Shown here piece by piece: positions 2,834 through 40,006 of a DNA stretch of 64,000 nt. Position numbers and translations under genes: made by a program. The notes under the pieces are model-generated. The model was not told where the DNA came from and did no database searches. It saw only the letters and a program-made list of their open reading frames with translations. Numbering within the stretch: the first letter of the stretch is position 1; each line of letters begins with the position of its first letter. The stretch is from a virus (taxonomy: Duplodnaviria; Heunggongvirae; Uroviricota; Caudoviricetes), in the IMG/VR virus record IMGVR_UViG_3300020451_002055; one strand, 5' to 3'.

Positions 2834-4426
2834 TCAAACATCCAGAGCGGCAAGCTCAGACTTGATCCGACGCAGAACCGCCTGAGTATCGTACTGCTTG
2901 TCGATCTCGGTCAGCGTATTGCCCCATGTCTCGTTATGAGCATCGACCCGAGCATGAGCAGCTTCGTGCTTGGCGATCGCCAACAGAGCCAACAGGTCGC
3001 CCTTGTTTGTCAAACGATACCTGGTCTTGGTTCCATCGACCGGGTTGAGACAGAAGACATGGCAGCCGCCCGTATCGAGATGGCAGCCCTCCTGCCAGCC
3101 GAAGACCCAACCAACCGACCAGGAAATGTCGCGGTAGTTGAACTCATCAACCAAGACCCGAAGAGCCTCTTCGATGGCGATCTTCCATGCGATCAGCAGA
3201 CGGTAAGCCTCGCGTCCGCGCTTGTAGGGGATGTACTCGTCGCCGCTCGTCTTGACCTCATGAGTCCAGTTCTCCGGGTTGAAACGATCGACAACCTTGT
3301 CCATCGCAGGATCGCCGGTCTCGTTGATGATCATGACATCGAAGAGATCAGGAGCAAACCGGTCGCCCGGCATCGGCTCGGAGCGAACCTCGATGACGCG
3401 AGCCGTAGGAGAGATCGGAGCTAAGGCAGCAGAGCGAGGAGTAACGACATCGCCTCCGCTGATCGTAGCGATCGGAGAGAACTCGCCCTCAGTCTCGATC
3501 GGAGCAGTCGATCCGGCCTTGCCTTGACGATGCTCGTCATCAAGCTGACGCTGCTCATCGGTCCGCTTGCCAAGCATCATCATACGACCGGAGCCGCTGA
3601 TGATACGACGAGTCTCGCGGTTGCGATCGCGGAGAGCGCTCCGGTCATCGACCGTAAGCTCGTCGATCCAACGATTGACCTCAGAGCGGAAATCGCCAAC
3701 GAACTCGTTGCGGTTGGCAGCCAAAACCTCTCGGGCACGATCGGGATCAATCTCAACAACGACCTGCTTCTTGCAGTTGACATGACGCCAGAACATCATG
3801 AGACCGCCGACCCGAAAGATGACGCGGTTGGCAAACGTGCCCGAACGATTGACATGGATGCCAGCGAACGAAAGCTCGCGGACGCGACGACCTCGGTCGA
3901 TGTAGTCGGAGAAGACCTCGCCGTTGATGCGAACCATGACGCCAGAGCGATCCAAAGAGCAGCAGCGGAGATACTCATTGAGATGACGACGCATCTCGTC
4001 GATGGTGGTATCCGACATCCAAACTCGAATGATGCAGCCGTCCTGACGCTCGATGTCGTCGATCATGTACTCGCCGCCCGTGCCGCGGACATGATTGGTC
4101 AGGGTCTCGATTTCGTACTTGTCATGACCGAAGCATGTCATGATGCGGGCTCGACCGAAGCCTCCGATGGAACCTCCGCCAGTCTTGGTCGTCTCGCCAA
4201 GAGCGAAGTAAACTCGGTCGAGGACATCGCGCGTCATGCCGCAGCCATTGTCTGCGACAGAGATGCGAATCTGTCCGCCTCCGCAATCGGTCAGGCTGAC
4301 CTCGATGCGGTTGGCTCCGGCATCGACAGAGTTCTGCAGAAGCTCTCGCCAGAAATCCGGCTTCCAGTTGTAGAGCTTCTTCCGCTCGTCGATGAAGAAC
4401 TGATGGGGAACTGTAATCGTCGGCAT
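2834..4426 (-). CDS. GHKL-superfamily ATPase (MutL/MORC/Hsp90-like Bergerat fold) with C-terminal HExxH
   Basis: N-box ELLQNSVDAGA, G1 box DNGCGM and G2 box GGGSIGGFGRA within the first ~100 aa. The C-terminus has HEAAHARVDAH (HExxH). AAAGGAG RBS lies upstream of the ATG at 4426. Confidence 0.7.
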   Translation of the reverse strand: MPTITVPHQFFIDERKKLYNWKPDFWRELLQNSVDAGANRIEVSLTDCGGGQIRISVADNGCGMTRDVLDRVYFALGETTKTGGGSIGGFGRARIMTCFGHDKYEIETLTNHVRGTGGEYMIDDIERQDGCIIRVWMSDTTIDEMRRHLNEYLRCCSLDRSGVMVRINGEVFSDYIDRGRRVRELSFAGIHVNRSGTFANRVIFRVGGLMMFWRHVNCKKQVVVEIDPDRAREVLAANRNEFVGDFRSEVNRWIDELTVDDRSALRDRNRETRRIISGSGRMMMLGKRTDEQRQLDDEHRQGKAGSTAPIETEGEFSPIATISGGDVVTPRSAALAPISPTARVIEVRSEPMPGDRFAPDLFDVMIINETGDPAMDKVVDRFNPENWTHEVKTSGDEYIPYKRGREAYRLLIAWKIAIEEALRVLVDEFNYRDISWSVGWVFGWQEGCHLDTGGCHVFCLNPVDGTKTRYRLTNKGDLLALLAIAKHEAAHARVDAHNETWGNTLTEIDKQYDTQAVLRRIKSELAALDV

Positions 4427-4481
4427 CCTCGACTCCTTTCGGGATACGCTGCAATCCTAGCATATTCGGTGATGGGCTGCC

Positions 4482-4495
4482 CACCCATCTTTCTC
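4482..4495 (+). promoter_or_regulatory. conserved intergenic 14-mer CACCCATCTTTCTC (copy 1 of 4), candidate promoter element
   Basis: Exact 14-mer located 55 nt upstream of the minus-strand start at 4426 and downstream of two terminators. Confidence 0.35.
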
Positions 4496-4502
4496 TCCGG
4501 GC

Positions 4503-4525
4503 GCAAATAAAAGGGGCAGAGCCCC
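4503..4525 (-). terminator. putative rho-independent terminator
   Basis: Minus strand GGGGC-TCT-GCCCC followed by TTTTATTT. Confidence 0.4.
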
Positions 4526-4610
4526 TTGGAGAAGTCAACGCACCATCCAGCAACAAGCAAGGAGAGGTGGTCTGAATGCTTCTTTTGAGTGCCCGCAGGT
4601 TGGTAGAGAG

Positions 4611-4642
4611 AAAAGGGGCGGGCCTTGCGGTAGACCCGCCCC
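4611..4642 (-). terminator. rho-independent terminator downstream of 4670..5257 gene
   Basis: Minus strand GGGGCGGG-12 nt loop-CCCGCCCC followed by TTTT, 28 nt after the stop. Confidence 0.6.
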
Positions 4643-4669
4643 CTTGGGGATTCTGTCAGCCGTCAGGCG

Positions 4670-5257
4670 TTAGCCGATGGCCTTGAGAGCGGCCTTGGCC
4701 TCCCTCGAACCGGCAGCGGTCAGGGCGTAGACGCCGCGGCTGACGCGCTTGAGGTGGCCGTCGTTGACGAGGTTGCCGAGGGCCTGGTTGACGACCGTCC
4801 GCTGGCCCTTCTCGTCGCCGGTGAAGACGTAGTTGCAGGGCTTCGTCTGGACAGCGGCATGGACCTCGGAGATGTTGAACTCGGTCCCGCGCTCGCTCTG
4901 ATCCATCGAAATCAGGATGCAGTTGGAGAGGGTAGCCGCGCCGCCGCCGCGCTTCTCGCTCGCGCCGTTGCTGGTCCTCGTCGAACGCCGACGCGCCTTG
5001 GGAGCGGGCTCGGGATCCTCGTAGAGGTAGTCGATGGCCGAGAGATCGGGAGCCTCGAACTCCTCGACGCCGAACTCAGCGAGGCCGTCGTCGATCTGGC
5101 CCAACTGACCGGCGAGAGCCGTCATCTGCTCCATGACCGAAGCGCGAGCCTCGTTCAGATCGTTCATCGCCGCCTCGCGACGCTCGTTCGCGCCGGTGAT
5201 GGTCGCCGAAATGTCCAGGGTCGCCGCCGACCCACCGTTCTGGTTCTTGCCCGCCAT
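4670..5257 (-). CDS. hypothetical coiled-coil / basic protein, possible winged-helix DNA-binding C-terminus
   Basis: ATG at 5257 (MAGKNQ) with AAGGAG RBS. Coiled-coil N-terminus, Arg/Lys-rich linker and C-terminal globular domain. The track's longer N-terminal extension is unlikely. Confidence 0.5.
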   Translation of the reverse strand: MAGKNQNGGSAATLDISATITGANERREAAMNDLNEARASVMEQMTALAGQLGQIDDGLAEFGVEEFEAPDLSAIDYLYEDPEPAPKARRRSTRTSNGASEKRGGGAATLSNCILISMDQSERGTEFNISEVHAAVQTKPCNYVFTGDEKGQRTVVNQALGNLVNDGHLKRVSRGVYALTAAGSREAKAALKAIG

Positions 5258-5512
5258 GGTTTGTCTCCTTGTTGACTTGCGGACTCTGATGCTGCGTTGG
5301 ACGACGTTGCCCAACGCTGTTGACGAGATACATTTGATCTCGCCAGTATTCGGTGAACATCTCAATCTAGAACAGCCCTTCTGAGAAGTCAAGAAAATCT
5401 TTCTGAGAATCCTCAACTTAGCCGTTAGGGTTCCGTCCAGTCAGCCTAGATAAGAAAAGCCCCTCCAACCTTAGATCAGAGGGGCTTGAGAGTTTAGAAG
5501 ATGCGTGCCTGC

Positions 5513-6805
5513 TTAGTTGAGCAAAGTCAGGTCGCGCTCGGTCTGACGATGAGGCAGGACGAACTCATTGACCCGAGCCGCCATGCTGGTCTCGAACGCC
5601 GTCCGGTTGAACCCGTGATCGGCAACGCCGGTGATACCGCCGTCATACATGGCGAACGTCAGAGCCTTGTCCTCGGCGTTGCGGCGAGCCGCCATCGAAC
5701 CGAGGCCCTTGGCGGCATCGGTCATCAGGTTAAAGACATCCCATTCGGTTGCCAACTCGTCATCGCCGTAGGCGTTCTTGCCGAGGTCGTGGCAACGCTC
5801 GTAGAACTCCTCGTTGATGTCGCCGCGGTCGCGGATGATGCCGAGGACATCGAACGCCGACTTCTCGCCGTCGCCGATCTGACGATGCTGCAACGCCTGA
5901 AGCGAAGTAGCGATCAGACCCGCAAACGGGAATGCGATCGAAGCCATCGAATCGAGCGATGCCTTGACATCCTCGAACGTCGTGGAACGCCGCATCTGGA
6001 ACGAACCGAACGCGAAGTCCTGATCCGTGCAGCCGTTGGCGCACCACATTCGCCAGACGCCGATGGATGCCCGAGGCATGAACGCCCGGACATCGGACGT
6101 AGAGAGGTTGAGCATCGTGTAGAGCCGCTTGGTCGGCTCTCGCTCAGACTCGATCATGATGGGGTTGCCGAAGAGGATTCGGAACTCCATGCCGCCCTGA
6201 CTGTTGGACTCGAACATCTCAACGCCGCGGATGATATCTCCGAAGCGCTCCATGATCGCCCGCATCGCGTTCGCGACGAAGATGTTGGAATCGGTACGGT
6301 CGATGTCGTCGCGCATAACGCCCTCGACGATCCGGCCCGTCCCGCTGTCGTTCGTGCGGAACATCAGGTTGAAGTCATCCGAACGGCGTGCCCGGAAGAA
6401 CGACGCGAAGTCGGCGAGGAAGTGGCGAGGGCCATGCTCGCCCATCTTCTGATAGCGGCTGTAGCCGCCCTTGGCATCCATCAAGCCCGCAAGCTGATTG
6501 ACAGCCCGGTTGGACATGGGAATCGGGCCATGCTCTCGAACATGGAGCCCGAGCCCGGCATCGATGTCGGGCGCGATGCTGAAGAGGGAATCGGAAGAGG
6601 GATCGATCTGGAGCCCAAGATGCTCGCCGCCCTCGACAAGCAAGTCCTGGCGACCATTGGCGATGCGGTTGAGCCGATTGAGACAATCGGTCGGGTGCAT
6701 CATACGGCGGGTCACGTTGTCCGTGACATCGACAGGGCGATCGTCCGTGACGAAGCGCTCCTGATCCCCTTCCATGATGGTCGGGATTTCTGCATACGTC
6801 GGCAT
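5513..6805 (-). CDS. hypothetical protein (430 aa)
   Basis: ATG at 6805 with AGAAAGGAAACC RBS. Protein-like; no motif recognised, and a capsid assignment cannot be supported. Confidence 0.5.
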   Translation of the reverse strand: MPTYAEIPTIMEGDQERFVTDDRPVDVTDNVTRRMMHPTDCLNRLNRIANGRQDLLVEGGEHLGLQIDPSSDSLFSIAPDIDAGLGLHVREHGPIPMSNRAVNQLAGLMDAKGGYSRYQKMGEHGPRHFLADFASFFRARRSDDFNLMFRTNDSGTGRIVEGVMRDDIDRTDSNIFVANAMRAIMERFGDIIRGVEMFESNSQGGMEFRILFGNPIMIESEREPTKRLYTMLNLSTSDVRAFMPRASIGVWRMWCANGCTDQDFAFGSFQMRRSTTFEDVKASLDSMASIAFPFAGLIATSLQALQHRQIGDGEKSAFDVLGIIRDRGDINEEFYERCHDLGKNAYGDDELATEWDVFNLMTDAAKGLGSMAARRNAEDKALTFAMYDGGITGVADHGFNRTAFETSMAARVNEFVLPHRQTERDLTLLN

Positions 6806-6997
6806 TAGGTTTCCTTTCTGAGAGTGGGTCCGTCTTAGCCGAACTGATTGCCGGACAACGCTGCCCGGCTGACAGCATACAGTATAGCAGACTTGGATTC
6901 GGTGAGCAAGCCACCCGTCAAATAGACAACGCCCGGGCATAGTGCCCGAGCGTTGCGCCCAAAGGATGCTTGTCTGAGGCAGCCTAGGGTCTGGTCT

Positions 6998-8368
6998 TTA
7001 CTCGGCCTCAGCCTCAGCCTCAGGCTGGCGAACAGCCGGGCGACCGCTGGCTCCCTCGATCGCGGCGAGGATGCTCGCAGCCGTCGAGCCGGACGAATGG
7101 CCGCCCGTCCGAGATGAGAGACGGGTCAGGTCGGGCTTGTCAGGGGCGGTCATCACCTTGCCCTCGTCAAGCTCGATCGTCTTGGGGCCATGCTTCCAAC
7201 GGACAGGCTTCAACTTCTCGCCGCCGCGATTCTTGTCGAAGATCAGGTTGACCCGAGCGTCGTTATGCTCATCGGGAGACCCGAGAATGATTGCATCGAC
7301 CGAGTGCCCGAACATCGACGAACCCTTCAACTCGCCCGAGGACTTCGAGATATGCGAGATGATGAACGCCGTGCACCCGGTTTCAACCAGCATCTCGTTG
7401 AAGCGGAGCATGCCATCGCGAACTCGACCATCCGGACCCTGGAACTCATGGATCATGTCCTTCGAGTCGATGACCAAGAAATCAGGTTCATCTCGGCGGA
7501 CAAGGAACTCGACCTCATCGAGCAAACCGACCTGTGCGAAGTCAACGGCGACCTGACCGGGCTTCCAAACGCCTCGCAGGAACATCGAGCGGAAGCGGGC
7601 CATCTGGGGAACCTCAGACTGGATGTAGAGGCCGGTATGTCCGCCGAACTCAACGCCGTCCTCGCGGGTCTGACGCGGGCCGCACATGTCGCGGAGCAAA
7701 CGAACCATCAAGCGGGTCTTGCCCGTTCCCTTCTTCGCGCCGAAAGCATACGAGAAGCCGCGAGCGATGCCATGAGACTCGACCTCGACAGGCTTGCGCT
7801 TGCCCTTGGGAACGATCTCATCGACAGTCGTGCCGAACCATTGATCGAGAACCGGATGGAAGGTCGGGATACGCTCGATCGGCACATCCTCGCCCTCTTC
7901 CCAACTGACAGTCTCGGCTCCGCCGGTTCGGGCAACAGCCGAACTCCGGGCCTCAGCCGCCCGCCAACCGTCCTCGACCTTCTTTCGGGTCTGGCGAACC
8001 TGCTCGCGGAGACGCTGGTTGCGGAGCTTATGGTACGCATCCGCATCGGTCAGCGTATCGCCGTCGAGCAGAGCGGCCCAAGCCTTGCGGCCCTTCTCGC
8101 TCGTGCTGCGCTTGATCTGATCGTTGATGTAAGCGACCCGATCGCCAGTCGTGGGGATATCCCAACCATACTGGTCGGCGATCGCGTTCCGCTCGCCATC
8201 GTCGAGGATCGCGTCGAGATTGTCGCGCTGACGAAGCAGATGCTCCATGATCTCGGCGTTGGCATTCGCGCCGACCATATTGTGCATCGTGATCAGATTC
8301 TCGATGAGTGCCTGATTGCTCAGAGATGCGGTTCGAAGGGCGGGCTTGGGCTTTGACTGACGGGCCAT
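6998..8368 (-). CDS. DnaB-like / RecA-fold replicative helicase ATPase
   Basis: Walker A FGAKKGTGKT, Walker B FLVIDS, SQL-like IISHISKS and H4-like DKNRGG. ~200-aa N-terminal domain. ATG at 8368 with AAAGGAG RBS. Confidence 0.55.
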   Translation of the reverse strand: MARQSKPKPALRTASLSNQALIENLITMHNMVGANANAEIMEHLLRQRDNLDAILDDGERNAIADQYGWDIPTTGDRVAYINDQIKRSTSEKGRKAWAALLDGDTLTDADAYHKLRNQRLREQVRQTRKKVEDGWRAAEARSSAVARTGGAETVSWEEGEDVPIERIPTFHPVLDQWFGTTVDEIVPKGKRKPVEVESHGIARGFSYAFGAKKGTGKTRLMVRLLRDMCGPRQTREDGVEFGGHTGLYIQSEVPQMARFRSMFLRGVWKPGQVAVDFAQVGLLDEVEFLVRRDEPDFLVIDSKDMIHEFQGPDGRVRDGMLRFNEMLVETGCTAFIISHISKSSGELKGSSMFGHSVDAIILGSPDEHNDARVNLIFDKNRGGEKLKPVRWKHGPKTIELDEGKVMTAPDKPDLTRLSSRTGGHSSGSTAASILAAIEGASGRPAVRQPEAEAEAE

Positions 8369-8442
8369 GGGAAACTCCTTTGGGTTTGGGTTGCGTGCCT
8401 CAGACGACCTACAGCCCTTGCCTCTCGGTTTCGGTGAACCCA

Positions 8443-9165
8443 TCAGCCCTCCGCCTCTGCTTTGACCTTCTCTCCTGTACTGGTAGTAGAGGCCTTGCCG
8501 ACAGCCCTCTCAACCGCAACAGCCATGCTCTCCGAGCCGCCAGTACCCTCCGTCACCGAATATCCCGCCCGAATCTTGACTGACGGAACATACGACCTGC
8601 GACGAATTTCGCGGATGGGAAGAACTTCCTCCCCAGTCGGAATCCCCGTCCGCAAACGGAGACGCATCTCCTGCTGAGTCCCAAGGACATCAATGCAGGC
8701 ATTCAACTGAGCGAGCTTCAGCCCATAAGGGTTGGCTCCGCCCAATCGCTGAAGAACACGGATGTTCTGATGAACCTTCTCAATGACGTTCTTCCCAGTC
8801 ACTTGCGACCGGAGAGGACGCCCCGTGAACGACTCCCATGGCGTCTTGCCGTCCTTCCCAACCAAGGAAGGATCAGTCATGACCTCCATGAACTTCGCCC
8901 AAAACGCAGCAAACGAATGCTCCTCGTTCTCGCCCAACAGAGAGAGCGTCTCAACGATGCCCCAGTAACCGCCTCCTCTGCGGTAAGGAGCAACGAAGCG
9001 CCCCGCCTCGTCTGCTTGGCCTCGGAACTTCGCCTGATCATCCATGCTCATGTGGTGGCGACGAACTCTGCCCATCTCTCCGGTCCTTGTAGGTACTGTC
9101 TCAGCACGCTGACTAATAGGCAATGCCGCTTCAGCAGCGTGATCCGAGTAAACTGTCTTGCTCAT
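8443..9165 (-). CDS. hypothetical protein, paralog of 58338..58889
   Basis: Shares KDGK...L(Q/T)R(L/S)GG(A/S)NPYG(L/K)(K/R)L and YW.I blocks with the 58338 ORF. Probable ATG at 9165. Confidence 0.45.
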   Translation of the reverse strand: MSKTVYSDHAAEAALPISQRAETVPTRTGEMGRVRRHHMSMDDQAKFRGQADEAGRFVAPYRRGGGYWGIVETLSLLGENEEHSFAAFWAKFMEVMTDPSLVGKDGKTPWESFTGRPLRSQVTGKNVIEKVHQNIRVLQRLGGANPYGLKLAQLNACIDVLGTQQEMRLRLRTGIPTGEEVLPIREIRRRSYVPSVKIRAGYSVTEGTGGSESMAVAVERAVGKASTTSTGEKVKAEAEG

Positions 9166-9273
9166 TGTTGATGCGTCCCGTAATCGGTGTCCGACCAGGC
9201 TCCAAGTCCTGCTAACGCCAGACGCATTCAACACCCATCTTACTTGATCGCTATTACACCAGCGAGCCTCCTT

Positions 9274-9287
9274 CACCCATCTTTCTC
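9274..9287 (+). promoter_or_regulatory. conserved intergenic 14-mer CACCCATCTTTCTC (copy 2)
   Basis: Exact repeat in the divergent intergenic region between the minus gene ending at 9165 and the plus Fic gene. Confidence 0.3.
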
Positions 9288-9324
9288 TACCCGCGAATTC
9301 CCGCACTCATCTTACCCGAAGCCG

Positions 9325-9338
9325 CACCCATCTTTCTC
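9325..9338 (+). promoter_or_regulatory. conserved intergenic 14-mer CACCCATCTTTCTC (copy 3)
   Basis: Exact repeat 103 nt upstream of the plus-strand start at 9441. Confidence 0.3.
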
Positions 9339-9440
9339 CACTGTCAACCAATAGAGACAAACCGGTCCGAATAGCCCTTGGGCATCGACTTCGCGGAACA
9401 AATGCGGAGAGATTGGGGCGGCTGACTTCCATTATACCAA

Positions 9441-10250
9441 ATGTCGGACCATGCGTGTCCGGACCATGAAAAAATCGTCACTCGGTCTGCAGATTTTTGT
9501 CGATACACAGGTATGACTGAACTCGATCCGACAACCATGCGCGTATTCCCAGAGCCGTCCCAGGACACGCTCATCGCATTCATCTACCATACCAACCGAA
9601 TCGAACGTATCCCGATGAATAAGCGCGACATCGAGGACGCCATCGCCCAAAGAGAACCAAACCCCTACGTCGAAGGACATCTCCGCGCCATCACCCTCGT
9701 ACAACAACTCGCTCCCGATCCAAAACTACTGCCCGAACGGGTAAACACAATCTTCGAGTTCGATGAGAAGTTCCCATGGCTCAAAAGACTCCACCGCAAC
9801 CTCATGAGACCGGTCGCCGAGTTCGGAGTCATGACCCTCGACCCCTCAATCATCCATCCAACCGATGTCGGCTCCTACCGACAAACAGCCAAGTCCATCA
9901 GAACCGAACGAGACAACATGATCATCGATGTCGAAATGCCAGGACCATTGACCATCAGAGAACATCTCCGAGATTGGGCCAACGACCTCTGCTCCTTCCA
10001 TAATGACATGCGACGAACCATCGAGTACGGTCGCTACTCAGACAGCGATACCGAAGCCCTCGTAGATAAGGCCTACGAAGCAAACCTCAAGCTGTCCTGC
10101 ATCAAACCATTCACGGATGGCAGCAACAGAACAGGACGACTCGTTGAGAATCTGCTCAGACTCAACTGGGGACTGCCTTGGAAAATCATCAGCCTCGATG
10201 ACAAAGATCAACTACTCGATGACCTACGCAATATGCAATCGAGATTTTAG
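9441..10250 (+). CDS. Fic/Doc (Fido) family protein with degenerate active-site motif
   Basis: CIKPFTDGSNRTGRLVENL aligns to HPFx(D/E)GNGRxxR with H->K, N->S and G->N substitutions. It is the only plus-strand gene in this 10-kb stretch. Confidence 0.5.
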   Translation: MSDHACPDHEKIVTRSADFCRYTGMTELDPTTMRVFPEPSQDTLIAFIYHTNRIERIPMNKRDIEDAIAQREPNPYVEGHLRAITLVQQLAPDPKLLPERVNTIFEFDEKFPWLKRLHRNLMRPVAEFGVMTLDPSIIHPTDVGSYRQTAKSIRTERDNMIIDVEMPGPLTIREHLRDWANDLCSFHNDMRRTIEYGRYSDSDTEALVDKAYEANLKLSCIKPFTDGSNRTGRLVENLLRLNWGLPWKIISLDDKDQLLDDLRNMQSRF

Positions 10251-10337
10251 CAACTACATCTGACTGTTAGTAAGGCGTTATTGAACAACTGCCTTACAAA
10301 TTGGGCACTTGCTAGAAATCCTTGCCAAAAGTCTGTC

Positions 10338-10351
10338 CACCCATCTTTCTC
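10338..10351 (+). promoter_or_regulatory. conserved intergenic 14-mer CACCCATCTTTCTC (copy 4)
   Basis: Exact repeat immediately 5' of the direct-repeat array. Confidence 0.3.
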
Positions 10352-10375
10352 CGTCACCGAAATGGATGTCAGGAG

Positions 10376-10740
10376 TTCGTCGTACAGTGGAACATTCCCG
10401 TACAGTGGCAGGATATTACCCGATCATCCCATTCGGTGCTAGAACCTGATGTCATTCGGTGCTACCTCGTACAGTGGCCCGATTCGGTGTTAGACTATAC
10501 ACGAAAGCAAAACCCTTCGAATCCCGAAGGGGAGCCTGAGGGGATGAGGGATCACAGAGGTTCCTCTGCTCTCCCATTCGGTGCTAAGAAATGAAAAATG
10601 AGGGTACGGACGATTCGATGCTTGCATCGAAGCGGCTGCTGAGTCCGAAGGACGAAGCGTACCTCATCCATTCGGTGCTACGCCTCGATTCTCTCGGCAT
10701 AGACGAGAGCTACAATTCTCTCCCATTCGGTGCTAGAAAA
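10376..10740. repeat. direct-repeat array: 6 copies of CCATTCGGTGCTA-type 13-mer plus 3 copies of CGTACAGTGG
   Basis: 13-mer copies at 10428, 10453, 10480 (degenerate), 10573, 10667 and 10722. The two outer units extend to CTCTCCCATTCGGTGCTA(A)GAAA. Spacers are irregular (about 12-80 nt). Embedded perfect hairpins TTCGATGC-TT-GCATCGAA and GGTACG...CGTACC lie near 10602-10664. Confidence 0.7.
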
Positions 10741-10776
10741 CGGAGAACCTAGCATGAGGAGACTATCGGTGATAGT

Positions 10777-11511
10777 CTACTCATCCTTAAGCAGCCTCTT
10801 CTTATCTTCCTCAAACTTCTCTACCTGAGACAGAAGACTCATAGATCTTTGGGTAGGATCAGTGCGCGAACGCAATTTCACAACGCTCTCCGAAGGTATC
10901 CATTCCGCGGGAAAAGTTGAACTAGCCAACACCAACTGATTACCCTTACCCAAAGCATGACGAGTCAAATGAGTATAGAAACTCTTACGACTCTCGTCGT
11001 CCAAACCCCTGTCCCAATCATCTACCAAGATAACAGAATCCCGCACATCCCTCATATGCAAATCGTAGACTACAGGGAAGACAGAACATACAGATTCAGA
11101 CAACTGACTGCCCCGTCGTACAGTGGAACGAGTTACGCCAGTACGCTCTGCTGAATAATAAACGATACCGTTTTTGACATGAGGTTTGTCGCCAACGCTT
11201 ACGTCCGCAGCCTTCGCCAGAGTCGCGCTCTTGTCCAAACGACCCCTACGAATATGAACTCCGCAAATCTCTCGCCCTACCTCGTAGTCAATACGAAGCA
11301 TGTCAGCTACATAAGGAAGTTCCGTACTCCCGCCAGACAAAACTGAACTGCTCCAACCACGAGCTATGCTGCTCATGATGTAAGACTTGCCGCTACCGTT
11401 CTTCCCAAAAAGCATAACGATATTCAGAATGTTACCGTCAGAGTCTTTGAACTCTAGGTTTGTGTCCTCGATATCCTTGCTTCCCCGGATATGGTAGCCT
11501 CGTAGTCTCAT
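10777..11511 (-). CDS. minimal ABC/SMC-like ATPase (AAA_21-like)
   Basis: Walker A LFGKNGSGKS and Walker B/D-loop ILVDDWDRGLDDES. 244 aa. Contains an exact copy of the 15-mer GTCGTACAGTGGAAC at 11115-11129, also found in the upstream repeat array. Confidence 0.65.
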   Translation of the reverse strand: MRLRGYHIRGSKDIEDTNLEFKDSDGNILNIVMLFGKNGSGKSYIMSSIARGWSSSVLSGGSTELPYVADMLRIDYEVGREICGVHIRRGRLDKSATLAKAADVSVGDKPHVKNGIVYYSAERTGVTRSTVRRGSQLSESVCSVFPVVYDLHMRDVRDSVILVDDWDRGLDDESRKSFYTHLTRHALGKGNQLVLASSTFPAEWIPSESVVKLRSRTDPTQRSMSLLSQVEKFEEDKKRLLKDE

Positions 11512-11514
11512 AGC

Positions 11515-11742
11515 TTATTCTCCCGTTACCTCGTAGCGACAGCCCCCGATTATGATGTAACTTTTCCCGTTGCTGTCCTTGATGATCTGCTTCCTTATAT
11601 CATCGACGTAATCGGGAATACGCTTTGGAAGCTCTGGCGGCTGTTTCGGAGCTAAGAAATCAGGCCAACGTCTTCTGATGTAGATAGCCAACATCAAAGG
11701 AACAGAAAGGATCGCTATACTCAAAACTGACCCGACTATCAT
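11515..11742 (-). CDS. small membrane protein, in operon with the ABC-like ATPase
   Basis: 75 aa with an N-terminal TM helix. Its stop abuts the ATPase start with a 3-nt gap. Confidence 0.45.
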   Translation of the reverse strand: MIVGSVLSIAILSVPLMLAIYIRRRWPDFLAPKQPPELPKRIPDYVDDIRKQIIKDSNGKSYIIIGGCRYEVTGE

Positions 11743-12103
11743 TTCGTTTTCCGCCGTTCCTCAATAAGACCTAAGAACCCGTTCCTTAGATCATAAATCC
11801 CTCGTTACTATAATCTTTTGCATTGTAAGAAGCGTGTTTCTTAGTACATCTTTTCGCAATTAAGAAGTCGGGTAAGTGAACCTGAATTAGATCCTCTAAC
11901 TTTTTCGATGTCAGGTTATGCTTCATGATGGTTCAAAATGGGGCTGTGTGGGTAGAAGTGGGGCATATTCCCATGTTCTCCCATTTCCCTATCGTACTCC
12001 AGAGCCCCCCAAACCCCATTTTCCACGCCAGCAGACCCTTTCAGCTTTGTCAGGTTCCTGTATTTTCTAACGTTTAGCAGTTTCATAGGTATTAGGAGGG
12101 GTA

Positions 12104-13402
12104 TTAGAAGCCATATCCGTCATCTGGATCGTCCTCATCTTGGTTGCTTATTGCCCATCGTCTGAGGGCCTCATCTTTGGCATCGATCTTGGGTTTGAGG
12201 TGTTGTCTGTAGAGGCTGCTATTCTTCCCTGCTTTGACGATGATTCCGTTCCTCTTGGCCTCCCTACAGAAGTCTGTCGAGGCCTTGACGAACCCTCGCC
12301 TTTCGAGGACATATCCCGCTCCCTCTTCAGCCGTCTCAAGCCTCGTAAACTCTAGTACAACTTTTGACTGTTCTATGAGTCTTTCGGGCATGTAATCATG
12401 GAAGGGCATGGTCTCATATACGGACCTCAGGATGTAGTCTGCGGCATGGGCCATGGACGCATATCCGAAGGCCACGCAGTCTAGCGATTGAGCTATCCGA
12501 CCGGAGTATAATCTTTGGCAGTTGTGGTTATCTGAGACCAAGCTCTTCTTGCTCTGGCATGCTTCGAAGAAGTTGAGGGCGTCCTCGTATCTTGAGATGG
12601 GATCGAGGGTTCCTTTGAGGGCTGCTGAGGAGGTAGCTTCGATGGCGACATGGCGGTTGCCGTCCCTGTTAAACTTTCCCGGTATGAAGGGAGTCGGGAG
12701 GGCAGCCGTTACTGTCTGCGGCGTTGCTATGTAGCCTCCGGGTCTGACCTCAAGATCATCGAGATCCGGCTGCTGAATTACTTCAACTTTTGGCAGTATC
12801 TCGTATCCTTGCATGGTCAGGATCGAGGCATACGAAGCTATGAGATTGGCGACGATGGAGAGGGCTGGTTCTCTCAGAGTTCTCTCGTTGTGTTCTCTGA
12901 GTCTGAGTAGTCCGAGGGGTATGACGTTGGGTAGTCCTGATCCTTCGTTGTTTCGTTCTTGGGTGACGAGTTCTTCTGAGATGAGGGCAACGATCCCGAT
13001 GTCTGTGGTGTTGAAGTATCCTGAGCCATCTCTTTCGATGACGGAGGCTTTGATGACTGAGGCGATCATCGGGGAGTTGATTTGGAGTATTTGTTCGAGT
13101 TCGTATGGTGAGAGGGCGTTCATGGGGGCGGGCACGACATAAGCTGCTCCCTGAGCGGACATATACTCGAAATCGCAGTTTTTGAGATACTCAGACGTAG
13201 AAACGACCCCATCCATGAACTGAGGGTCTTTCTTGGCTTGTTCTGCTCTCTCAGCTTCCATTTCAGCTATCTTCTTCTTCCTACCGTATTCTTGGGAGAT
13301 AGCCATGTTTGATCTTCTCTGATGCATCTTCTGGTTCATGTGGGTCATGTTATTGGACTTCCCGAGGCTTTGGAGTCTTTTGATGAGATCGTAGCGGGAC
13401 AT
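12104..13402 (-). CDS. hypothetical protein (432 aa)
   Basis: Long ORF with protein-like composition in the lower-GC segment; no motif recognised. Confidence 0.5.
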   Translation of the reverse strand: MSRYDLIKRLQSLGKSNNMTHMNQKMHQRRSNMAISQEYGRKKKIAEMEAERAEQAKKDPQFMDGVVSTSEYLKNCDFEYMSAQGAAYVVPAPMNALSPYELEQILQINSPMIASVIKASVIERDGSGYFNTTDIGIVALISEELVTQERNNEGSGLPNVIPLGLLRLREHNERTLREPALSIVANLIASYASILTMQGYEILPKVEVIQQPDLDDLEVRPGGYIATPQTVTAALPTPFIPGKFNRDGNRHVAIEATSSAALKGTLDPISRYEDALNFFEACQSKKSLVSDNHNCQRLYSGRIAQSLDCVAFGYASMAHAADYILRSVYETMPFHDYMPERLIEQSKVVLEFTRLETAEEGAGYVLERRGFVKASTDFCREAKRNGIIVKAGKNSSLYRQHLKPKIDAKDEALRRWAISNQDEDDPDDGYGF

Positions 13403-18425: not shown

Positions 18426-19546
18426 TTGATGTTCTCTAGCTTGATGATGGGAATCTCATCAGAATGGAACGGCTTGATGGTTGTGAGCTTTTTGCCTTGA
18501 ACGGCGGTTGTTATGGGGAGCCCGCTGTTCTTAGCCATCTGCACCATCGCTTGCGTCTTGCCGGTCTGTCTCCCATACTTTATGGCTAAGATACGGTCTG
18601 CTGCCCATGCCTTCTGTCTCGACTCTTCGATTTCCTCTGCATTCAAGGGCTGATGCTTGGGCGTCTGTAGTTCTATTTCTGCGCAGGGATTTGTCATGAC
18701 GGGAGCTTCTCCCGCCTTCTTCTTGCGTTCTTCCTCTTCCGCGCGGAGTTTCTTGATAGTCTCGTTGCGTTTTTCGTCGTAAATGATCTTACGATCGGCC
18801 CATAGCTTCTGCTTGCGGTATTCATCTGCAAGGAAGCGGTCGAGGTTGTTGCAAAGTGCCTTCAGCCATTCGCACTTCATGGGCTCATTGGGGACTCGAT
18901 GTATCCAATGCTTTTTGACAGGATTCGAAGGAGAGAAGACTCGCTTCTTCTTCCATTTATCCTCTATGGGAAGATCGGGTCTAAATAGTTCAACGCAGAA
19001 GATGTCTCTACCGGCGAGGGTCAGAGACATGGCGAAGCTATTGATGATCGGATGCTCTGTATAGTCGTTGCTCTCTCTGTTCGCATCGCGAGAGAAGCGG
19101 AACAGCGGAACGCAACAGTTCTTGCCTAGCTTCGATAGTCTCTCTACCTCGTCGTCGCTGGGGGCAGCAAGTACATAGCAACAGCGGGTATCGCTTGGAG
19201 AAAAGTGAGAGGAGCCCGGACCGGGAGCCCGTTCATAAGAAGCAAGAAACTGCTTAGGAGTAACAGACTTGGGTATCTCAAGGACGATCAGATTGATCTC
19301 GCCCGCGTCCATGATCTCGAAGGCTTCCATAGGCTCCATGATGGAGCCGTAGTCGATCATCTCGGTATACGATTGATCGTTATTCAGAATACCGCAGTCT
19401 ATCTTTTTGCAATGCTTATCGACGGGCATCGGCTCTTCGAACGGAGGCGGGGCCTTCTCCATGACTGGATCAGGTCTTCTTTGGTGACCAAATGCCATAT
19501 CATATTGGCTCTCGTATAAGAACTTGTTGTTGATCTTATTTGACAA
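18422..19546 (-). CDS. paralogous-family protein
   Basis: Family motif FAMSLTLAGRDIFCV. Confidence 0.5.
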   Translation of the reverse strand: MSNKINNKFLYESQYDMAFGHQRRPDPVMEKAPPPFEEPMPVDKHCKKIDCGILNNDQSYTEMIDYGSIMEPMEAFEIMDAGEINLIVLEIPKSVTPKQFLASYERAPGPGSSHFSPSDTRCCYVLAAPSDDEVERLSKLGKNCCVPLFRFSRDANRESNDYTEHPIINSFAMSLTLAGRDIFCVELFRPDLPIEDKWKKKRVFSPSNPVKKHWIHRVPNEPMKCEWLKALCNNLDRFLADEYRKQKLWADRKIIYDEKRNETIKKLRAEEEERKKKAGEAPVMTNPCAEIELQTPKHQPLNAEEIEESRQKAWAADRILAIKYGRQTGKTQAMVQMAKNSGLPITTAVQGKKLTTIKPFHSDEIPIIKLENIK

Positions 19547-20363
19547 CGATGTCGCCCCAATCGTTAGCCGCCTCTTTGAAGCTTCTGCTCAGCGTTGAGA
19601 TTTGCTTTTCCATAGCGGCAACGGCTTTATCTCTCGTAGAGATAGCATTGATGCCGTGCCGCTTGTAGGCGGCTTCCCTGATCGATGATTCTTTCTTGGA
19701 GAACTCGGCCCAGGCTTGTTCCATGATGAAGTTGACGCCAGCCTTGAGACTGTCGTAGAAGTATCGCATCAGCGATGATGTCGGGCACGAAACCGCAACC
19801 CGGCTGATATGGTCCGTCTCGTGCCGGAAAGTAACATAGACAATGACGCTCATGGTTCTTGGGTCATGGTCGTAGCCATCTATGTATGCATCAACAACAA
19901 GACCATTGACATTCTTTGATTCGTGATATTTGACATCAGCGAGAGCCTGCAGGTATTGTTCATCGCTCTTGCCGCAATGACGGTATCGATCGTAGAGATC
20001 ATAACTACTCTTGCTGTAGTAACTGATGTAGTCGTAATCATCGTAGTAGTATTTAGAGCGACCGTTCTTAGAGTATTTGTTTCCCTTGCGAGGCTTCTTT
20101 GGCTCTTCTTCAACGCGCCATTTGCGAGTCTTGGGCCTGTAGTCCTCGACGAACGACTTTTCTCGCGGGTCGTAGATTTCTCCGATCCCCTGATGCCGAG
20201 CCGGATTCGCTCCGGCGACTGGCTTCATCTTCTTGGCTTGCGAAGCTCTGCGACGAGAGAGCCAGAACCCGATACTATCTGACTTTTCGCGAGGGACGCG
20301 GGCCGTTCTGTCGGGATCGATCTGATCGAGAAGTTCTCTCATGGTAGCTGCTGCTCGGAACAT
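19536..20363 (-). CDS. hypothetical protein (Tyr/Asp-rich segment)
   Basis: 275-aa ORF, no motif. Confidence 0.45.
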   Translation of the reverse strand: MFRAAATMRELLDQIDPDRTARVPREKSDSIGFWLSRRRASQAKKMKPVAGANPARHQGIGEIYDPREKSFVEDYRPKTRKWRVEEEPKKPRKGNKYSKNGRSKYYYDDYDYISYYSKSSYDLYDRYRHCGKSDEQYLQALADVKYHESKNVNGLVVDAYIDGYDHDPRTMSVIVYVTFRHETDHISRVAVSCPTSSLMRYFYDSLKAGVNFIMEQAWAEFSKKESSIREAAYKRHGINAISTRDKAVAAMEKQISTLSRSFKEAANDWGDIVVK

Positions 20364-28312: not shown

Positions 28313-28663
28313 TCAGTCAGATGCGTTTCTGATTTCAAGAACAGATTGAGGCGTAACCTTCTCGCCTCGTTCACGCAACTCTTCAACGACCTCAGAACAG
28401 AGAGGGCAAACGGGATTGAAGAATCCTTCGCCTTTCTCGTCGGGAATGACAGAGTTCAGATCGTTGTCGATTTCATGACCGCCGTAAGGAGTCCTGCAGA
28501 CAATACACGGACCCCATTCGTAGCCATGGCTCTGAGCATATACGCGATGACGCCAGCGAGGTTCATAGTTGTCAGGTTCGCTCCTGATGAACCCAATACC
28601 TGGGATAGCAGCAGCCATAAAAAGGATCAAGACAACCAAGATGACCTGTAGCGTTCGTCTCAT
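28313..28663 (-). CDS. small exported Cys-rich protein
   Basis: N-terminal signal/TM segment; CIVCRTPYGGHE ... CPLCSEVV. Confidence 0.45.
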   Translation of the reverse strand: MRRTLQVILVVLILFMAAAIPGIGFIRSEPDNYEPRWRHRVYAQSHGYEWGPCIVCRTPYGGHEIDNDLNSVIPDEKGEGFFNPVCPLCSEVVEELRERGEKVTPQSVLEIRNASD

Positions 28664-38523: not shown

Positions 38524-38745
38524 TCAGTTGGCCGCTATGATACTGCCATCCGGGTTGCACCTGTAGCGCTCAGATGTATCAACACCAGTAGGAGATCCAT
38601 CGCAGTTATGGAGCCGGTAAAGATTCGACTGGTTTCCATTCTTCAGAATGACTATCCAGATATTTGGAGCGGCCTCTACTATGTTTGCAATCGACTTGTC
38701 AGTCGTCATGATTTCTCCTGTTGTCTTAGCCCTTGAGAACAGCAA
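38524..38745 (-). CDS. small hypothetical protein
   Basis: 73 aa. Confidence 0.3.
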   Translation of the reverse strand: MLFSRAKTTGEIMTTDKSIANIVEAAPNIWIVILKNGNQSNLYRLHNCDGSPTGVDTSERYRCNPDGSIIAAN

Positions 38746-40006
38746 TAGGCTTGAGTTCGGTTTCGATATCTACAAGGTCTGCCTGATTCTCCATGACAGC
38801 ACCTACGTCTTTGTATGCAGTACCTAGCTCGTCATGAGCATTTCTGGTTCCGTATAGCTCAACATTTGCCTTGCCAAGCTGCGACTCTTGCGACGGGTCA
38901 ACACCCTCCTTGACTCGCCTCTTTGCCTCGGTCCTGCTGAAGTTACGACCCGAGCCATGAGAGCAACTGTTCATGCTGTCCTTGTTGCCCTTGCCCTTTA
39001 CGATGTATGACTTCGTAGTCATCGAGCCGGGTATGATGCCGATGGTCTGCGGGCGAGCAAGAGTCGCGCCCTTGCGATGGACCCATACATTCTCGCCGCC
39101 GTGATTCTCTTGAGCAGCGTAGTTGTGATGGATGTTGATGAAGTCGGCAAGAGGATTGGTCTGATGAACCTGATCTCTCAAGGCAGACTGAGCCGCTCTC
39201 ATCATGGCTGCTCTGTTCTGATACGCAAAGTCTTGAGCGATCTGCATCGCCTCGATGTAGTATTGCCCTTCCGCGCAGTCGATTGGAAGGTAAGCAAGGT
39301 CTTGGGTCTCAAGCTTACTGAAGTACCTTGAACAAATGGCCTTGGCAGCGTTATGGTGCTGCTTAGCGGTCTGAGCCCCATAGCCTCTCGAACCGCTATG
39401 GATCATGATCCATGCGATACCGCTGCTATCCTTCTGTAGCTCAACGAAGTGATTGCCGCCGCCGAGCGTACCTAGCTGACATCTGAATCGCTCAAAGTCA
39501 GGCGGAGCCTCGAACTTACCATGCTCGTCAGCCATGACAGCATGACGCTGAGCTAGTTCATCAGCAGCCTTCTTGAACTTGGGTTCGGAAAGAACATCTG
39601 CTTTGCCGCTATGCGACTTTCCTTCTCCATGAGGGATGAGTTCTTTCCACTCAACCATGAGCTTGCGAACATCTAGGTCGTTTGCTAGAACGCCCGAGTT
39701 CCACGCGCACATGCCGCATCCAATATCAACGCCAACAGCATTGGGGATGATCGCTCCCTTAGTCGGAAGAACGCAGCCAATGGGTACGCCCTTGCCGTAA
39801 TGAGCATCCGGCATAAGAGCAATATGACCATGAGCGCAAGGCAATCGAGCTACCATGCCTACTTGTAGTCGAGTGTTCTCGCCTATAGCAGGTATGTAAC
39901 GTCCTAGTTCATCGGAATACTCTACCGCCCATATCTTGACCGGTCTTCCTCCCGTTTCCTCCGGAGGTAGAACTGCCATTCTGCTCTTTGGGTTCTTCTT
40001 GCTCAT
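38726..40006 (-). CDS. rtcB: RtcB-family RNA 3'-phosphate/2',3'-cyclic-phosphate ligase
   Basis: GGGNHF, HSGSRG and SCSHGSGR signature blocks with conserved metal-binding Cys/His. Confidence 0.9.
   Translation of the reverse strand: MSKKNPKSRMAVLPPEETGGRPVKIWAVEYSDELGRYIPAIGENTRLQVGMVARLPCAHGHIALMPDAHYGKGVPIGCVLPTKGAIIPNAVGVDIGCGMCAWNSGVLANDLDVRKLMVEWKELIPHGEGKSHSGKADVLSEPKFKKAADELAQRHAVMADEHGKFEAPPDFERFRCQLGTLGGGNHFVELQKDSSGIAWIMIHSGSRGYGAQTAKQHHNAAKAICSRYFSKLETQDLAYLPIDCAEGQYYIEAMQIAQDFAYQNRAAMMRAAQSALRDQVHQTNPLADFINIHHNYAAQENHGGENVWVHRKGATLARPQTIGIIPGSMTTKSYIVKGKGNKDSMNSCSHGSGRNFSRTEAKRRVKEGVDPSQESQLGKANVELYGTRNAHDELGTAYKDVGAVMENQADLVDIETELKPIAVLKG

Follow-up and report, generated by a model that had tools for sequence, protein, structure and literature searches.

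The closest described counterparts of the locus reported here are the iteron-regulated replicons, i.e. P1 RepA with incC/incA, F RepE, pSC101 RepA and R6K pi. In these systems several direct repeats lie upstream of the gene of a winged-helix protein, the repeat closest to the gene contains its promoter so that binding autoregulates, further copies are found elsewhere and a replication-type ATPase is encoded nearby. The same arrangement is seen around a short repeat, box A, of a huge marine phage, the winged-helix domain being predicted and autoregulation proposed. On the other hand, box A measures 10-14 bp at irregular multiples of ~10 bp instead of 17-22 bp at ~22 bp, neither DnaA boxes nor an AT-rich element adjoin it, the replicon is a ~480-kb phage genome, and the 240-aa protein encoded next to the boxes matches neither Rep_3 nor any sequence in Pfam, NCBIfam or PDB.

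Other systems share single traits with the locus. The C1 repressor of phage P1 also has an asymmetric, non-palindromic site, single or multiple, at several promoters of one phage genome, and its operators overlap core promoter elements; here, however, the sites are clustered in one ~12-kb locus of 64 kb with up to 4-6 in tandem, and a sequence relationship to C1 was not detected. The centromeres of TubR-tubC (type III) and ParR-parC (type II) come without extra single sites at unrelated promoters, and the partner here is a RecA/DnaB-like ATPase and not a tubulin or actin homologue. Unlike the OmpR/PhoB-type winged-helix regulators of direct repeats, the 240-aa protein has no receiver domain and no sequence homology to them, and the nearest box overlaps the -10 hexamer, as repressor sites do, instead of taking the place of the -35. 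Phage-specific promoters (T7-like single-subunit RNAP, phiKZ/AR9 non-virion RNAP, N4 virion RNAP) likewise are short, conserved, oriented motifs with a G-rich start that stand upstream of genes and after terminators. Yet box A is not spread over a gene class in 64 kb, its copies are tandem and phased or inverted, the locus has a sigma70-type promoter and a polymerase gene was not found in the window. Very little has been learned so far about how huge uncultured phages regulate their genes.

Copies of box A

The window, the whole stretch of 64,000 nucleotides that was analysed, is part of a 486,833-bp TARA scaffold. A search returned the exact 14-mer CACCCATCTTTCTC on the plus strand at 4482-4495, 9274-9287, 9325-9338 and 10338-10351, the same four positions that the initial annotation had listed. 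With up to two mismatches allowed five matches were found against 0.53 expected, and 0 of 100 shuffles reached five; the 14-mer is a real repeat. The core CACYCATCTTWC is present in six perfect copies, sites at 9232 and 9304 joining the four exact 14-mers, all on the plus strand and all within 4482-10351. The only other core matches with one mismatch in the window, at 986 and 28283, are likely due to chance.

On the minus strand the core reads AAGATGGGTG and the consensus of box A RAAAGATGGGTG. Read in this direction, copy 1 (4482-4495) is GAGAAAGATGGGTG. Upstream of the 240-aa gene follow the nearest box at 9232-9245, AAGTAAGATGGGTG with TAAGAT at 9242-9237, an exact copy 42 bp from it at 9274-9287, the degenerate copy GGGTAAGATGAGTG at 9304-9317 and the farthest, again exact, at 9325-9338; spacings inside this cluster are 21, 30 and 42 bp. 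Copy 4 (10338-10351) is located between the stop codon of the Fic gene (10250) and a repeat array.

All six copies in the window are intergenic, as had been claimed for the four exact ones, once the start of the 240-aa gene is set at the ATG at 9165. This position, previously taken for the end of a minus-strand gene, is its start, and the copies at 9274 and 9325 stand upstream of it. A longer ORF from 8443 to 9306 was rejected as a real gene because alignments with 24 homologues begin at the ATG at 9165.

A further copy, CACCCATCTTTCT, is situated ~970 nt to the left of window position 1 (L121, 20139-20151), where it takes up the 14-nt spacer that separates tRNA-Leu(cag) from tRNA-Leu(taa). 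Called the eighth copy, it is inverted with respect to the others. Thus the uniform orientation reported earlier holds inside the window but not for the tRNA spacer; the bias is nevertheless strong with 7/8 copies in this genome and nearly all in relatives. Within the 64 kb box A is restricted to the one ~12-kb locus.

Conservation in relatives

Relatives were viral contigs of 370-494 kb in IMG/VR. Every relative that conserves synteny carries 1-6 direct copies of the box, or of a clade-specific variant, upstream of the 240-aa gene. The shared gene order is AAA-244aa / array / divergent gene / 240aa / ATPase / ~430aa / ~200aa / GHKL, and loci with this order have 2-5 direct AAGATG(G/A)GTG boxes upstream of the 240-aa homologue on the strand of the gene. 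The G-to-A variant AAGATGAGTG recurs in L125, L128, L144 and L185. Box A appears to be a short control sequence conserved in a lineage of uncultured ~480-kb marine phages.

Within each clade all copies of the box change together. The variants are AAGATGGGTGCAAG in L132, L188 and L203, AAGATCGGTGCA in L135, L146 and L198, (C/G)GTTATGRGTG in L137, L139-141, L143 and L197, TTTGCCAGAGTG with inverted copies in L142, and ATGTGGGTC or ACGTGRGT in L145. The -10-like AAGAT part varies between clades, while the 3' GTG is constant in all variants except that of L145. Sites bound by a dedicated factor that co-evolves with them should drift in such concert.

Tandem arrangements comprise 3-6 boxes at distances close to multiples of ~10.2 bp. 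Thirty spacings between adjacent copies from 13 loci cluster at 20-21, 29-33, 38-43 and 48 bp, with a period of 10-10.4 bp (Rayleigh R ~0.5, p ~5e-4 to 3e-3, related genomes being counted as independent). Inverted pairs of boxes were seen in L125 and L142.

The promoter of the 240-aa gene

The 240-aa gene (8443-9165, minus strand) encodes a predicted winged-helix protein. A -35-like hexamer, TCGCTG at 9260-9265 on the minus strand, was read from the sequence exactly 17 nt upstream of TAAGAT, so that the promoter reads TCGCTG-17-TAAGAT with its -10 hexamer supplied by the nearest box and a spacer within the 17 ± 1 nt of sigma70-type promoters. A generic promoter scan missed it because the -35 matches TTGACA at only 2/6 positions. 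The exact 17-nt spacer recurs in L125, L127, L128, L130, L143, L197 and L218, the hexamer at this distance being TTGCTG in L130 and TTGCGG in L127, and whole promoters reading TTGCAA-17-TATACT (L143), TTGCTG-17-TATAGT (L197) and TTGCAG-17-TACAAT (L218). In L185, where the equivalent of the 9232 box reads TATAATGGGTG, TATAAT forms the -10 and the spacer measures ~18 nt. In L125, L127, L128, L130 and L144 GTAAGATGGGTGT has been preserved at -66 to -78 relative to the ATG. The repeated boxes of distant clades stand ~55 nt upstream of the -35. These comparisons show the -35-like hexamer, the 17-nt spacer and the -10 to be kept throughout the family and indicate that the promoter is of the sigma70 type, probably used for host-type initiation.

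Directly after the last box starts a structured 5' leader (9166-9231, minus strand) with a folding dG of -26.8 and a z of -3.5, whose closing helix reaches the start codon. RNAalifold found a hairpin with compensatory and G-U pairs in six relatives.

The GHKL unit, box B and the array

The second transcription unit that carries a box encodes a GHKL (MutL-like N-terminal) ATPase (2834-4426, minus strand). Copy 1 is located 55 nt 5' of its ATG (4426) and follows two stacked intrinsic terminators of the minus strand (4511-4645) that end the upstream unit: one at 4612-4645 (dG -27.2, z -4.4), succeeded by UUUUCUCUCU, and the other at 4511-4527. The distance and the stacked terminators agree with the initial annotation, which had recognized a terminator-promoter-RBS-gene layout; the order terminator, box, RBS, gene is indeed seen, and position and orientation of the box are conserved in relatives. 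A GHKL homologue with an orthologous single box 55-90 nt upstream is present in the closest relatives, L125, L127, L128, L130 and L132; L134 is without a box there. Position and orientation are conserved at the 240-aa and GHKL genes, and all boxes of the 64 kb belong to one locus.

In the upstream region of the GHKL unit no convincing sigma70 -35/-10 was found. The ~110 nt that hold its promoter contain box A, box B and a CCGCGGA motif only. Thus the box could be part of the GHKL promoter.

Box B, CACCGAAT, is a second motif exposed by the comparative data at every promoter of the locus. On the minus strand it lies at 4464-4471, 10 nt downstream from copy 1 of box A, with further sites at 9182-9189, 6897-6904, 5348-5355 and 373-380 and six in the array. 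It is kept at orthologous promoters and changed in concert in L132 and L135. The array itself (10378-10750, minus strand) is non-coding, is located between convergent genes and is composed of TAGCACCGAATGGG units (box B) and GCCACTGTACG units (box C); it is also present in L125, L127, L128, L130 and L132. Box A copy 4, said earlier to precede the array directly, does so with a gap of 27 nt and is adjoined by an inverted B-like site, TTTCGGTG. Orthologues of copy 4 lie at the array edge at 6746 in L125, where 6768 carries an inverted partner, and at 6704 in L128.

Box A as a putative operator

With moderate confidence we favor the view that box A is a set of operator or iteron-like sites for the 240-aa protein and serves its autoregulation and the co-regulation of neighbouring units. 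The asymmetric boxes would be bound by a dedicated DNA-binding protein from the same locus, most likely the 240-aa protein (8443-9165). Upstream of its gene four boxes are spaced 2-4 helical turns apart over ~105 bp, and the nearest overlaps the -10 hexamer and the start region of the sigma70-type promoter. Because of this overlap cooperative head-to-tail binding would occlude host RNAP, which would result in negative autoregulation. Single boxes may place three further units under the same regulator, namely the GHKL ATPase (box in the promoter region), the B/C array behind Fic (box at the edge) and the tRNA-Leu cluster (box inside). This view builds on the observed conservation, placement, phasing and promoter overlap of the boxes and on the predicted winged-helix domain, and we infer which protein binds and that binding represses. 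The sites are kept at orthologous promoters and change in concert, as those of an operator set do with their factor. Orientation bias and a fixed distance to start codons would also be shown by a promoter.

The 240-aa protein is a candidate binder by its adjacency and by a correlation with the boxes that follows phylogeny. One of its helices carries substitutions that parallel the box variants: QN[IVL]R/N/T-VLQRL pairs with GATGGGTG, DSI[RK]VLQRL with GATCGGTG (3 loci) and QN[ILV]EVLQRL with GTTATGAGTG, which amounts to only ~3-4 independent changes along the phylogeny. For P0032 and P0025 the box variant was foretold correctly from the protein sequence in both cases. A neighbouring 195-aa protein with an AbiEi-like winged HTH is an alternative binder.

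The 240-aa gene is followed by, and overlaps at its end with, the gene of a 481-aa RecA-fold ATPase (AAA_25 / KaiC / RadA / DnaB-like; 6998-8443, minus strand), whose neighbouring homologue in L145 has a weak DnaB_C match. Because a RecA/DnaB-like ATPase follows the regulated gene the boxes may, like those of P1 incC/repA, double as iterons of a module for replication or segregation. In that case they would mark a replication or segregation locus in a ~480-kb phage genome; if they are operators only, the circuit is a common type of autoregulation, found in an unusual host genome. Either way the locus offers a concrete pair of regulator and site, an uncharacterised family with a predicted winged-helix domain and a 10-bp box, with the clade-specific variants as natural specificity mutants, next to a conserved module of RecA/DnaB-like ATPase, GHKL ATPase and Fic.

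Alternative explanations

The initial annotation had proposed the minus-strand reading as a sequence that a phage-specific sigma factor or RNAP might use as promoter. That this reading is meaningful, regulatory and located in promoter regions was supported, but we consider it unlikely that GAGAAAGATGGGTG itself is the promoter or core recognition element of a phage-encoded polymerase or sigma factor. Transcription would then start from within or just after GGGTG, and the tandem copies would be stacked promoters as in T7 A1-A3 or the N4 early promoters. At the two places where its position is conserved the box points the same way as the gene, follows terminators directly and keeps a distance of 55-90 nt to the start codon, which fits this proposal, as do the short GHKL promoter region without a good sigma70 -35, the structured leader that begins right behind the last box and the G-rich start (GGG), which may resemble T7-type initiation sites. 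The concerted change of copies per clade would fit a co-evolving polymerase or sigma factor equally. On the other hand, the conserved -35-like hexamer at exactly 17 nt and the better -10 of L185 point to host-type sigma70 initiation, and in distant clades the boxes are separated from the -35 of the 240-aa gene. The part of the box that varies is the -10-like one. Phage promoters should precede many units of one temporal class with one co-oriented copy each; we found instead four tandem copies at one gene, phased at ~10 bp and sometimes inverted, two of eight copies antisense (copy 4 into the Fic 3' end, the tRNA-spacer copy into tRNA genes) and a single locus in 64 kb. An RNAP or sigma gene was not among the ~40 window proteins scanned (64 kb of the 486,833-bp scaffold).

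Distinctly unlikely is a primary function of the boxes as replication-origin iterons or as a partition centromere, promoter control being secondary, with the 240-aa protein as initiator or adaptor and the RecA/DnaB-like ATPase as motor. An initiator promoter embedded in repeats is what the -10 inside the nearest copy appears to provide. Yet next to the boxes there is no AT-rich unwinding element (GC 0.51-0.56) and no DnaA-box cluster, spacing is irregular (20-48 bp) where direct repeats of 17-22 bp at a ~22-bp period would be expected, and the 240-aa protein lacks sequence signatures of Rep_3, Orc and ParB and falls outside the Rep_3 / RepA-RepE-pi family with its two winged-helix domains. Single boxes at the GHKL promoter and in the tRNA spacer suit regulation better than an origin. 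Separately, the GC skew changes locally near 12 kb, where gene composition is unusual too, and this change cannot be interpreted.

About equally improbable is a wider reading in which boxes A, B and C form one family of sites with a GGTG/CACC core, a lineage-specific control code of the ~480-kb marine phages. A winged-helix family not described before would use phased boxes at its own promoter and single boxes at every neighbouring promoter and in the tRNA cluster, and the dense ~400-bp array with its 10-13 sites would be an origin or centromere-like hub. If so, replication or segregation would be linked to the expression of the GHKL ATPase, Fic and the ATPase; alternatively, the boxes would be promoters of a new phage polymerase.

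An action of the motif as RNA, i.e. as a signal for processing, stability or antitermination within leaders and tRNA precursors that may pair with a nearby complementary CACC-containing sequence (box B), is very unlikely. One copy does fill a tRNA-tRNA spacer exactly, both the GHKL and the 240-aa leader offer a downstream CACC with which the GGGTG of box A can pair, and the latter leader is a conserved structured RNA. However, the transcribed sense differs between the tRNA precursor (CACCCAUCUUUCU) and the protein genes (GAGAAAGAUGGGUG), the three upstream tandem copies sit upstream of the promoter, and hairpins at copies 1 and 4 are no more stable than those of shuffles (z -1.6 and -0.5). Rfam covariance models gave no match at E <= 1 over 3500-13000, and no consensus structure emerged for the GHKL leader.

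That the copies are recombination sites or cassette boundaries of an acquired GC-rich block (4.5-9.3 kb) plus a variable gene is barely credible: GC is ~0.60 between 4 and 9.5 kb against ~0.50 elsewhere, the copies at 4482 and 9274 match at 19/22 positions and the gene divergent from the 240-aa gene differs among relatives (Fic as here, an unrelated 211-243 aa protein, or none), but no integrase or transposase was found near the block, none of the loci examined was a relative without the block showing a single box at the empty site, block and gene order are conserved down to ~40% protein identity and hence not a recent insertion, and the copies stand tandem and phased upstream of one gene and not paired at the block ends.

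Genes and box A copies of the window

The window covers bases 70969-134968 of a 486,833-bp TARA Oceans scaffold, TARA_SAMEA2623826_METAG-scaffold_1 of ENA ERZ2782998. Its relatives in IMG/VR are viral contigs of 370-494 kb, and its genes include RtcB, an RNA ligase, DNA methylases, an HNH-like protein and many ORFans. From the size of the relatives and this gene content the source is best described as an uncultured huge phage. The locus that carries box A, the repeated 14-mer, encodes on the minus strand a GHKL/MutL-like ATPase (2834-4426), a 195-aa protein with an AbiEi-like winged HTH (4670-5257), a 430-aa protein with no function assigned (5513-6805), a RecA-fold ATPase (AAA_25 / KaiC / RadA / DnaB-like; 6998-8443) and a 240-aa protein (8443-9165). 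These are followed by Fic on the plus strand (9441-10250), a non-coding repeat array (10378-10750) and a 244-aa P-loop ATPase on the minus strand (10777-11511).

Exact copies of box A (CACCCATCTTTCTC) were located at 4482, 9274, 9325 and 10338, all on the plus strand. Five matches with up to two mismatches were obtained versus 0.53 expected, and 0 of 100 shuffles reached five, which confirmed that the fourfold repetition reported in the initial annotation is beyond chance. The core CACYCATCTTWC had six perfect plus-strand copies, including two additional ones at 9232 and 9304, all inside 4482-10351; no convincing copy was detected in the remainder of the 64 kb. On the strand of the 240-aa gene box A reads AAGATGGGTG.

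Every copy in the window is intergenic. An ORF of 8443-9306 appears in the ORF list, yet 24 homologues of the 240-aa protein align from the ATG at 9165. Thus 9165 is the start of this gene and not its end as annotated, and with this start the claim of an exclusively intergenic location held. Copy 1 was indeed positioned 55 nt upstream of the GHKL ATPase ATG (4426) and directly after two minus-strand terminators at 4612-4645 (dG -27.2, z -4.4, followed by UUUUCUCUCU) and 4511-4527. The proposed uniform orientation applied inside the window, but an eighth copy just outside, which occupies the whole 14-nt gap separating two tRNA-Leu genes, is inverted. Boxes are co-oriented upstream of the GHKL and 240-aa genes. 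Copy 4 is oriented toward the 3' end of Fic; as promoters, this copy and the tRNA-spacer copy would both be antisense.

Box A in related loci

The 240-aa protein has 33 homologues, all of them metagenomic. Contexts were collected by exact protein look-up (12), from IMG/VR (7) and from JGI/ENA metagenomes (46). The short contigs L122-L124, considered as other contexts of the 240-aa gene, were discarded as 100% identical fragments of the same sequence. Gene order was kept down to ~40% protein identity, which argues against a recent insertion of the GC-rich block (4-9.5 kb); a recent GC-rich island or cassette was thus ruled out by conserved synteny. The GC content is ~0.60 at 4000-9500 compared to ~0.50 in the rest of the window, and the block is syntenic in all relatives.

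In eight related loci (L125, L127, L128, L130, L134, L144, L185, L186) two to six direct copies of AAGATGGGTG precede the 240-aa homologue, and wherever the distance was measured the nearest copy starts 66-78 nt before the start codon. L125, L127, L128, L130 and L132 each have a single copy 55-90 nt before the GHKL homologue, and L125 and L128 have a copy at the array edge equivalent to copy 4. In seven close loci the gene strand carried 39 matches with one mismatch at most and the opposite strand 5, and clean matches were almost all intergenic.

Distant clades retained boxes whose copies change in concert: AAGATGGGTGCAAG in L132, L188 and L203, AAGATCGGTGCA in L135, L146 and L198, (C/G)GTTATGRGTG in L137, L139-141, L143 and L197, TTTGCCAGAGTG with inverted copies in L142, and ATGTGGGTC / ACGTGRGT in L145. 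Except for the L145 variant, the 3' GTG is the only part common to all. Adjacent boxes were spaced by 20-21, 29-33, 38-43 or 48 bp. This corresponds to a period of 10-10.4 bp (Rayleigh R ~0.5, p ~5e-4 to 3e-3; n=30 from 13 loci, the spacings not being phylogenetically independent). Inverted pairs occur in L125 and L142. In a distant clade (L208, L209, L216) the region before the 240-aa homologue contains nine copies of GTCTTGGTC, and five of these form a run at a strict 11-12-bp period. This arrangement is unlike the usual phased boxes and may mean that the same family of proteins binds here in another way.

Megablast of 4000-12000 found no match in the phage and plasmid collections, scanning IMG/VR for the exact 14-mer yielded single chance matches only, and a search of IMG/VR with the 481-aa protein alone found no related loci. 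The 38 IMG/VR loci with tandem pairs AAGATGGGTG-N5-35-AAGATGGGTG were rejected as mostly in-frame Lys-Met-Gly-Gly coding repeats and a few other tandem duplications; none encoded relatives of the 240-aa, 481-aa or GHKL proteins. A literature search on the motif brought up only unrelated papers, none tied to phage regulation.

Promoter and leader of the 240-aa gene

A promoter of the sigma70 type lies before the 240-aa gene throughout the family: its -35-like hexamer is followed by GTG, and the spacer to the -10 element measures exactly 17 nt. In the window these are TCGCTG (9265-9260) and TAAGAT (9242-9237) on the minus strand, so that the -10 element coincides with the 5' half of the last box, the degenerate copy at 9232. 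The -35-like hexamer is TTGCTG in L130 and TTGCGG in L127, and the last box of L185 is TATAATGGGTG. Distant promoters are TTGCAA-17-TATACT (L143), TTGCTG-17-TATAGT (L197) and TTGCAG-17-TACAAT (L218); in these clades the repeated boxes are located ~55 nt upstream of the -35 element, outside the core promoter.

The 5' leader (9166-9231, minus strand) begins immediately after the last box and has a predicted structure with dG -26.8 and z -3.5. In six relatives its inner hairpin shows compensatory as well as G-U pairs. The conserved structured leader would place the transcription start just after the last box. The outer helix UGUUGA.UGCGUC / GACGCA.UCAACA stops 2 nt before the AUG and the leader has no Shine-Dalgarno sequence, which together suggests translational control.

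A candidate binding protein

The 240-aa family had no sequence match in Pfam, NCBIfam, PHROG functions or the PDB. A PDB profile search gave no match either, and Foldseek against the PDB returned nothing significant. The AF2 model from 24 sequences was confident (pLDDT 84.7, pTM 0.78), and a winged-helix domain is predicted for the protein. The box type tracks the helix before the invariant PYGLKLAQ helix: QN[IVL](R/N/T)VLQRL goes with GATGGGTG, DSI(R/K)VLQRL with GATCGGTG at three loci, and QN[ILV]EVLQRL with GTTATGAGTG. Boxes predicted from the protein sequences of two homologues were both found, GTTATGAGTG for P0032 and GATCGGTG for P0025, although the independent events are few because both belong to clades already sampled.

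Proposed mechanism and alternative readings

We favor the view that the boxes are operator or iteron-like sites. The predicted winged-helix protein would bind head-to-tail and helically phased over ~105 bp, would thereby cover the -10 element and start site of its own sigma70 promoter, and could so exert negative autoregulation. The same protein would be linked by single boxes to the GHKL unit, to the array edge behind Fic and to the tRNA-Leu cluster.

Since a RecA/DnaB-like ATPase is encoded next, the locus is reminiscent of iteron replicons such as P1 incC/repA. In contrast to these, the 240-aa protein did not match Rep_3, the boxes are not regularly spaced repeats of 17-22 bp, and neither DnaA boxes nor an adjacent AT-rich unwinding element turned up in a search. 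Our claim concerns the mode of action, which would be that of an iteron or operator system, and not membership of the iteron family. The locus would represent an operator or iteron array of known type in a poorly known phage group.

The initial annotation proposed a promoter for a phage sigma factor or RNAP. The data agree with this reading in part: the boxes are biased in orientation and lie at a fixed distance from start codons, and GHKL lacks a recognisable sigma70 promoter. Yet the 240-aa gene has a sigma70-type promoter throughout the family, the boxes of distant clades lie outside the core promoter, boxes are phased or inverted, two copies would be antisense, and no RNAP or sigma gene was found among ~40 proteins of the window, which is 64 kb of the 486,833-bp scaffold. 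Thus a plain promoter for a special polymerase does not account for the box, and we consider a phage-polymerase promoter unlikely.

Somewhat less probable again is a primary role as origin or centromere iterons.

We regard a signal at the RNA level as improbable. The structured leader of the 240-aa gene is in its favor, but hairpins at copies 1 and 4 were no better than shuffles, folding of the GHKL leader gave no consensus structure, and Rfam gave no match. A recombination or cassette boundary is highly improbable given the conserved synteny of the block.

Box B, box C and the array

A second motif, box B (CACCGAAT, minus strand), lies ahead of each transcription unit of the locus (373-380, 4464-4471, 5348-5355, 6897-6904, 9182-9189) and is conserved at orthologous sites in L125, L127, L128 and L130. 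In that form and strand it was not found elsewhere in the 64-kb window besides the locus units and the array. Its position relative to sigma70 hexamers varies: it is at ~+1 of TTGACT-17-TAGATT for the 195-aa gene, while in the promoter of the 430-aa gene its first base coincides with the final base of the -35 element, at the border to the spacer and exactly 17 nt before TATACT. Box B is replaced in concert by CCACATAC/GGAT in L132 and TTCACATGCGAT in L135. Its reverse complement ATTCGGTG resembles box A, especially the GATCGGTG variant; judged by this likeness, boxes A, B and C may form one site family with a GGTG core.

The array between convergent genes (10378-10750) is composed of box B and box C (CACTGTAC). 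It contains 10 densely packed units of box B (TAGCACCGAATGGG) and box C (GCCACTGTACG), some only 13-23 bp apart, interspersed with hairpin-plus-T-run segments such as a minus-strand terminator-like hairpin at 10513-10531. The gene of the 244-aa ATPase itself contains an exact 16-mer copy from the array (11114-11129). L125, L127, L128, L130 and L132 have conserved the array, whose role could be that of an origin or centromere, of a titration array or of a small-RNA locus.

Additional observations

In relatives the palindrome TTTCCGCGGAAA, often with a T-run and CCGCGGAA, recurs immediately behind terminators and immediately ahead of box A or -35 elements. Degenerate sites are at ~4496-4505 (GCGCCCGGAGAG) and ~9385-9392 of the window, and L127, L128 and L130 have several intergenic sites. 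The palindrome may be a third regulatory site. A perfect DnaA-box-like 9-mer (TTATCCACA), the sole perfect copy in 64 kb, is located at 2819-2827 just past the GHKL stop codon; L127, L128 and L130 have the same 9-mer, in either orientation, at the corresponding intergenic site.

The scaffold locus L121 encodes five tRNA-Leu genes (anticodons tag, caa, gag, cag, taa) at 19507-20235, ~350-1070 nt left of window position 1, and a tRNA-like sequence not called by ARAGORN at ~19600-19715. One spacer of the cluster has a box A copy, and box B (GCACCGAATATG) follows the last tRNA. Within the window GC and AT skew shift sharply around 12-16 kb with the coding strand unchanged. Finally, a complete PAS-PAS-HisKA-HATPase sensor histidine kinase is encoded on the minus strand (50148-51962) of this apparent phage genome, near RtcB (38726-40006), the RNA ligase (28660-29478), a hyaluronidase-like protein (56347-57585), and two D12-class and one N6/N4 DNA methylases (42024-45552).
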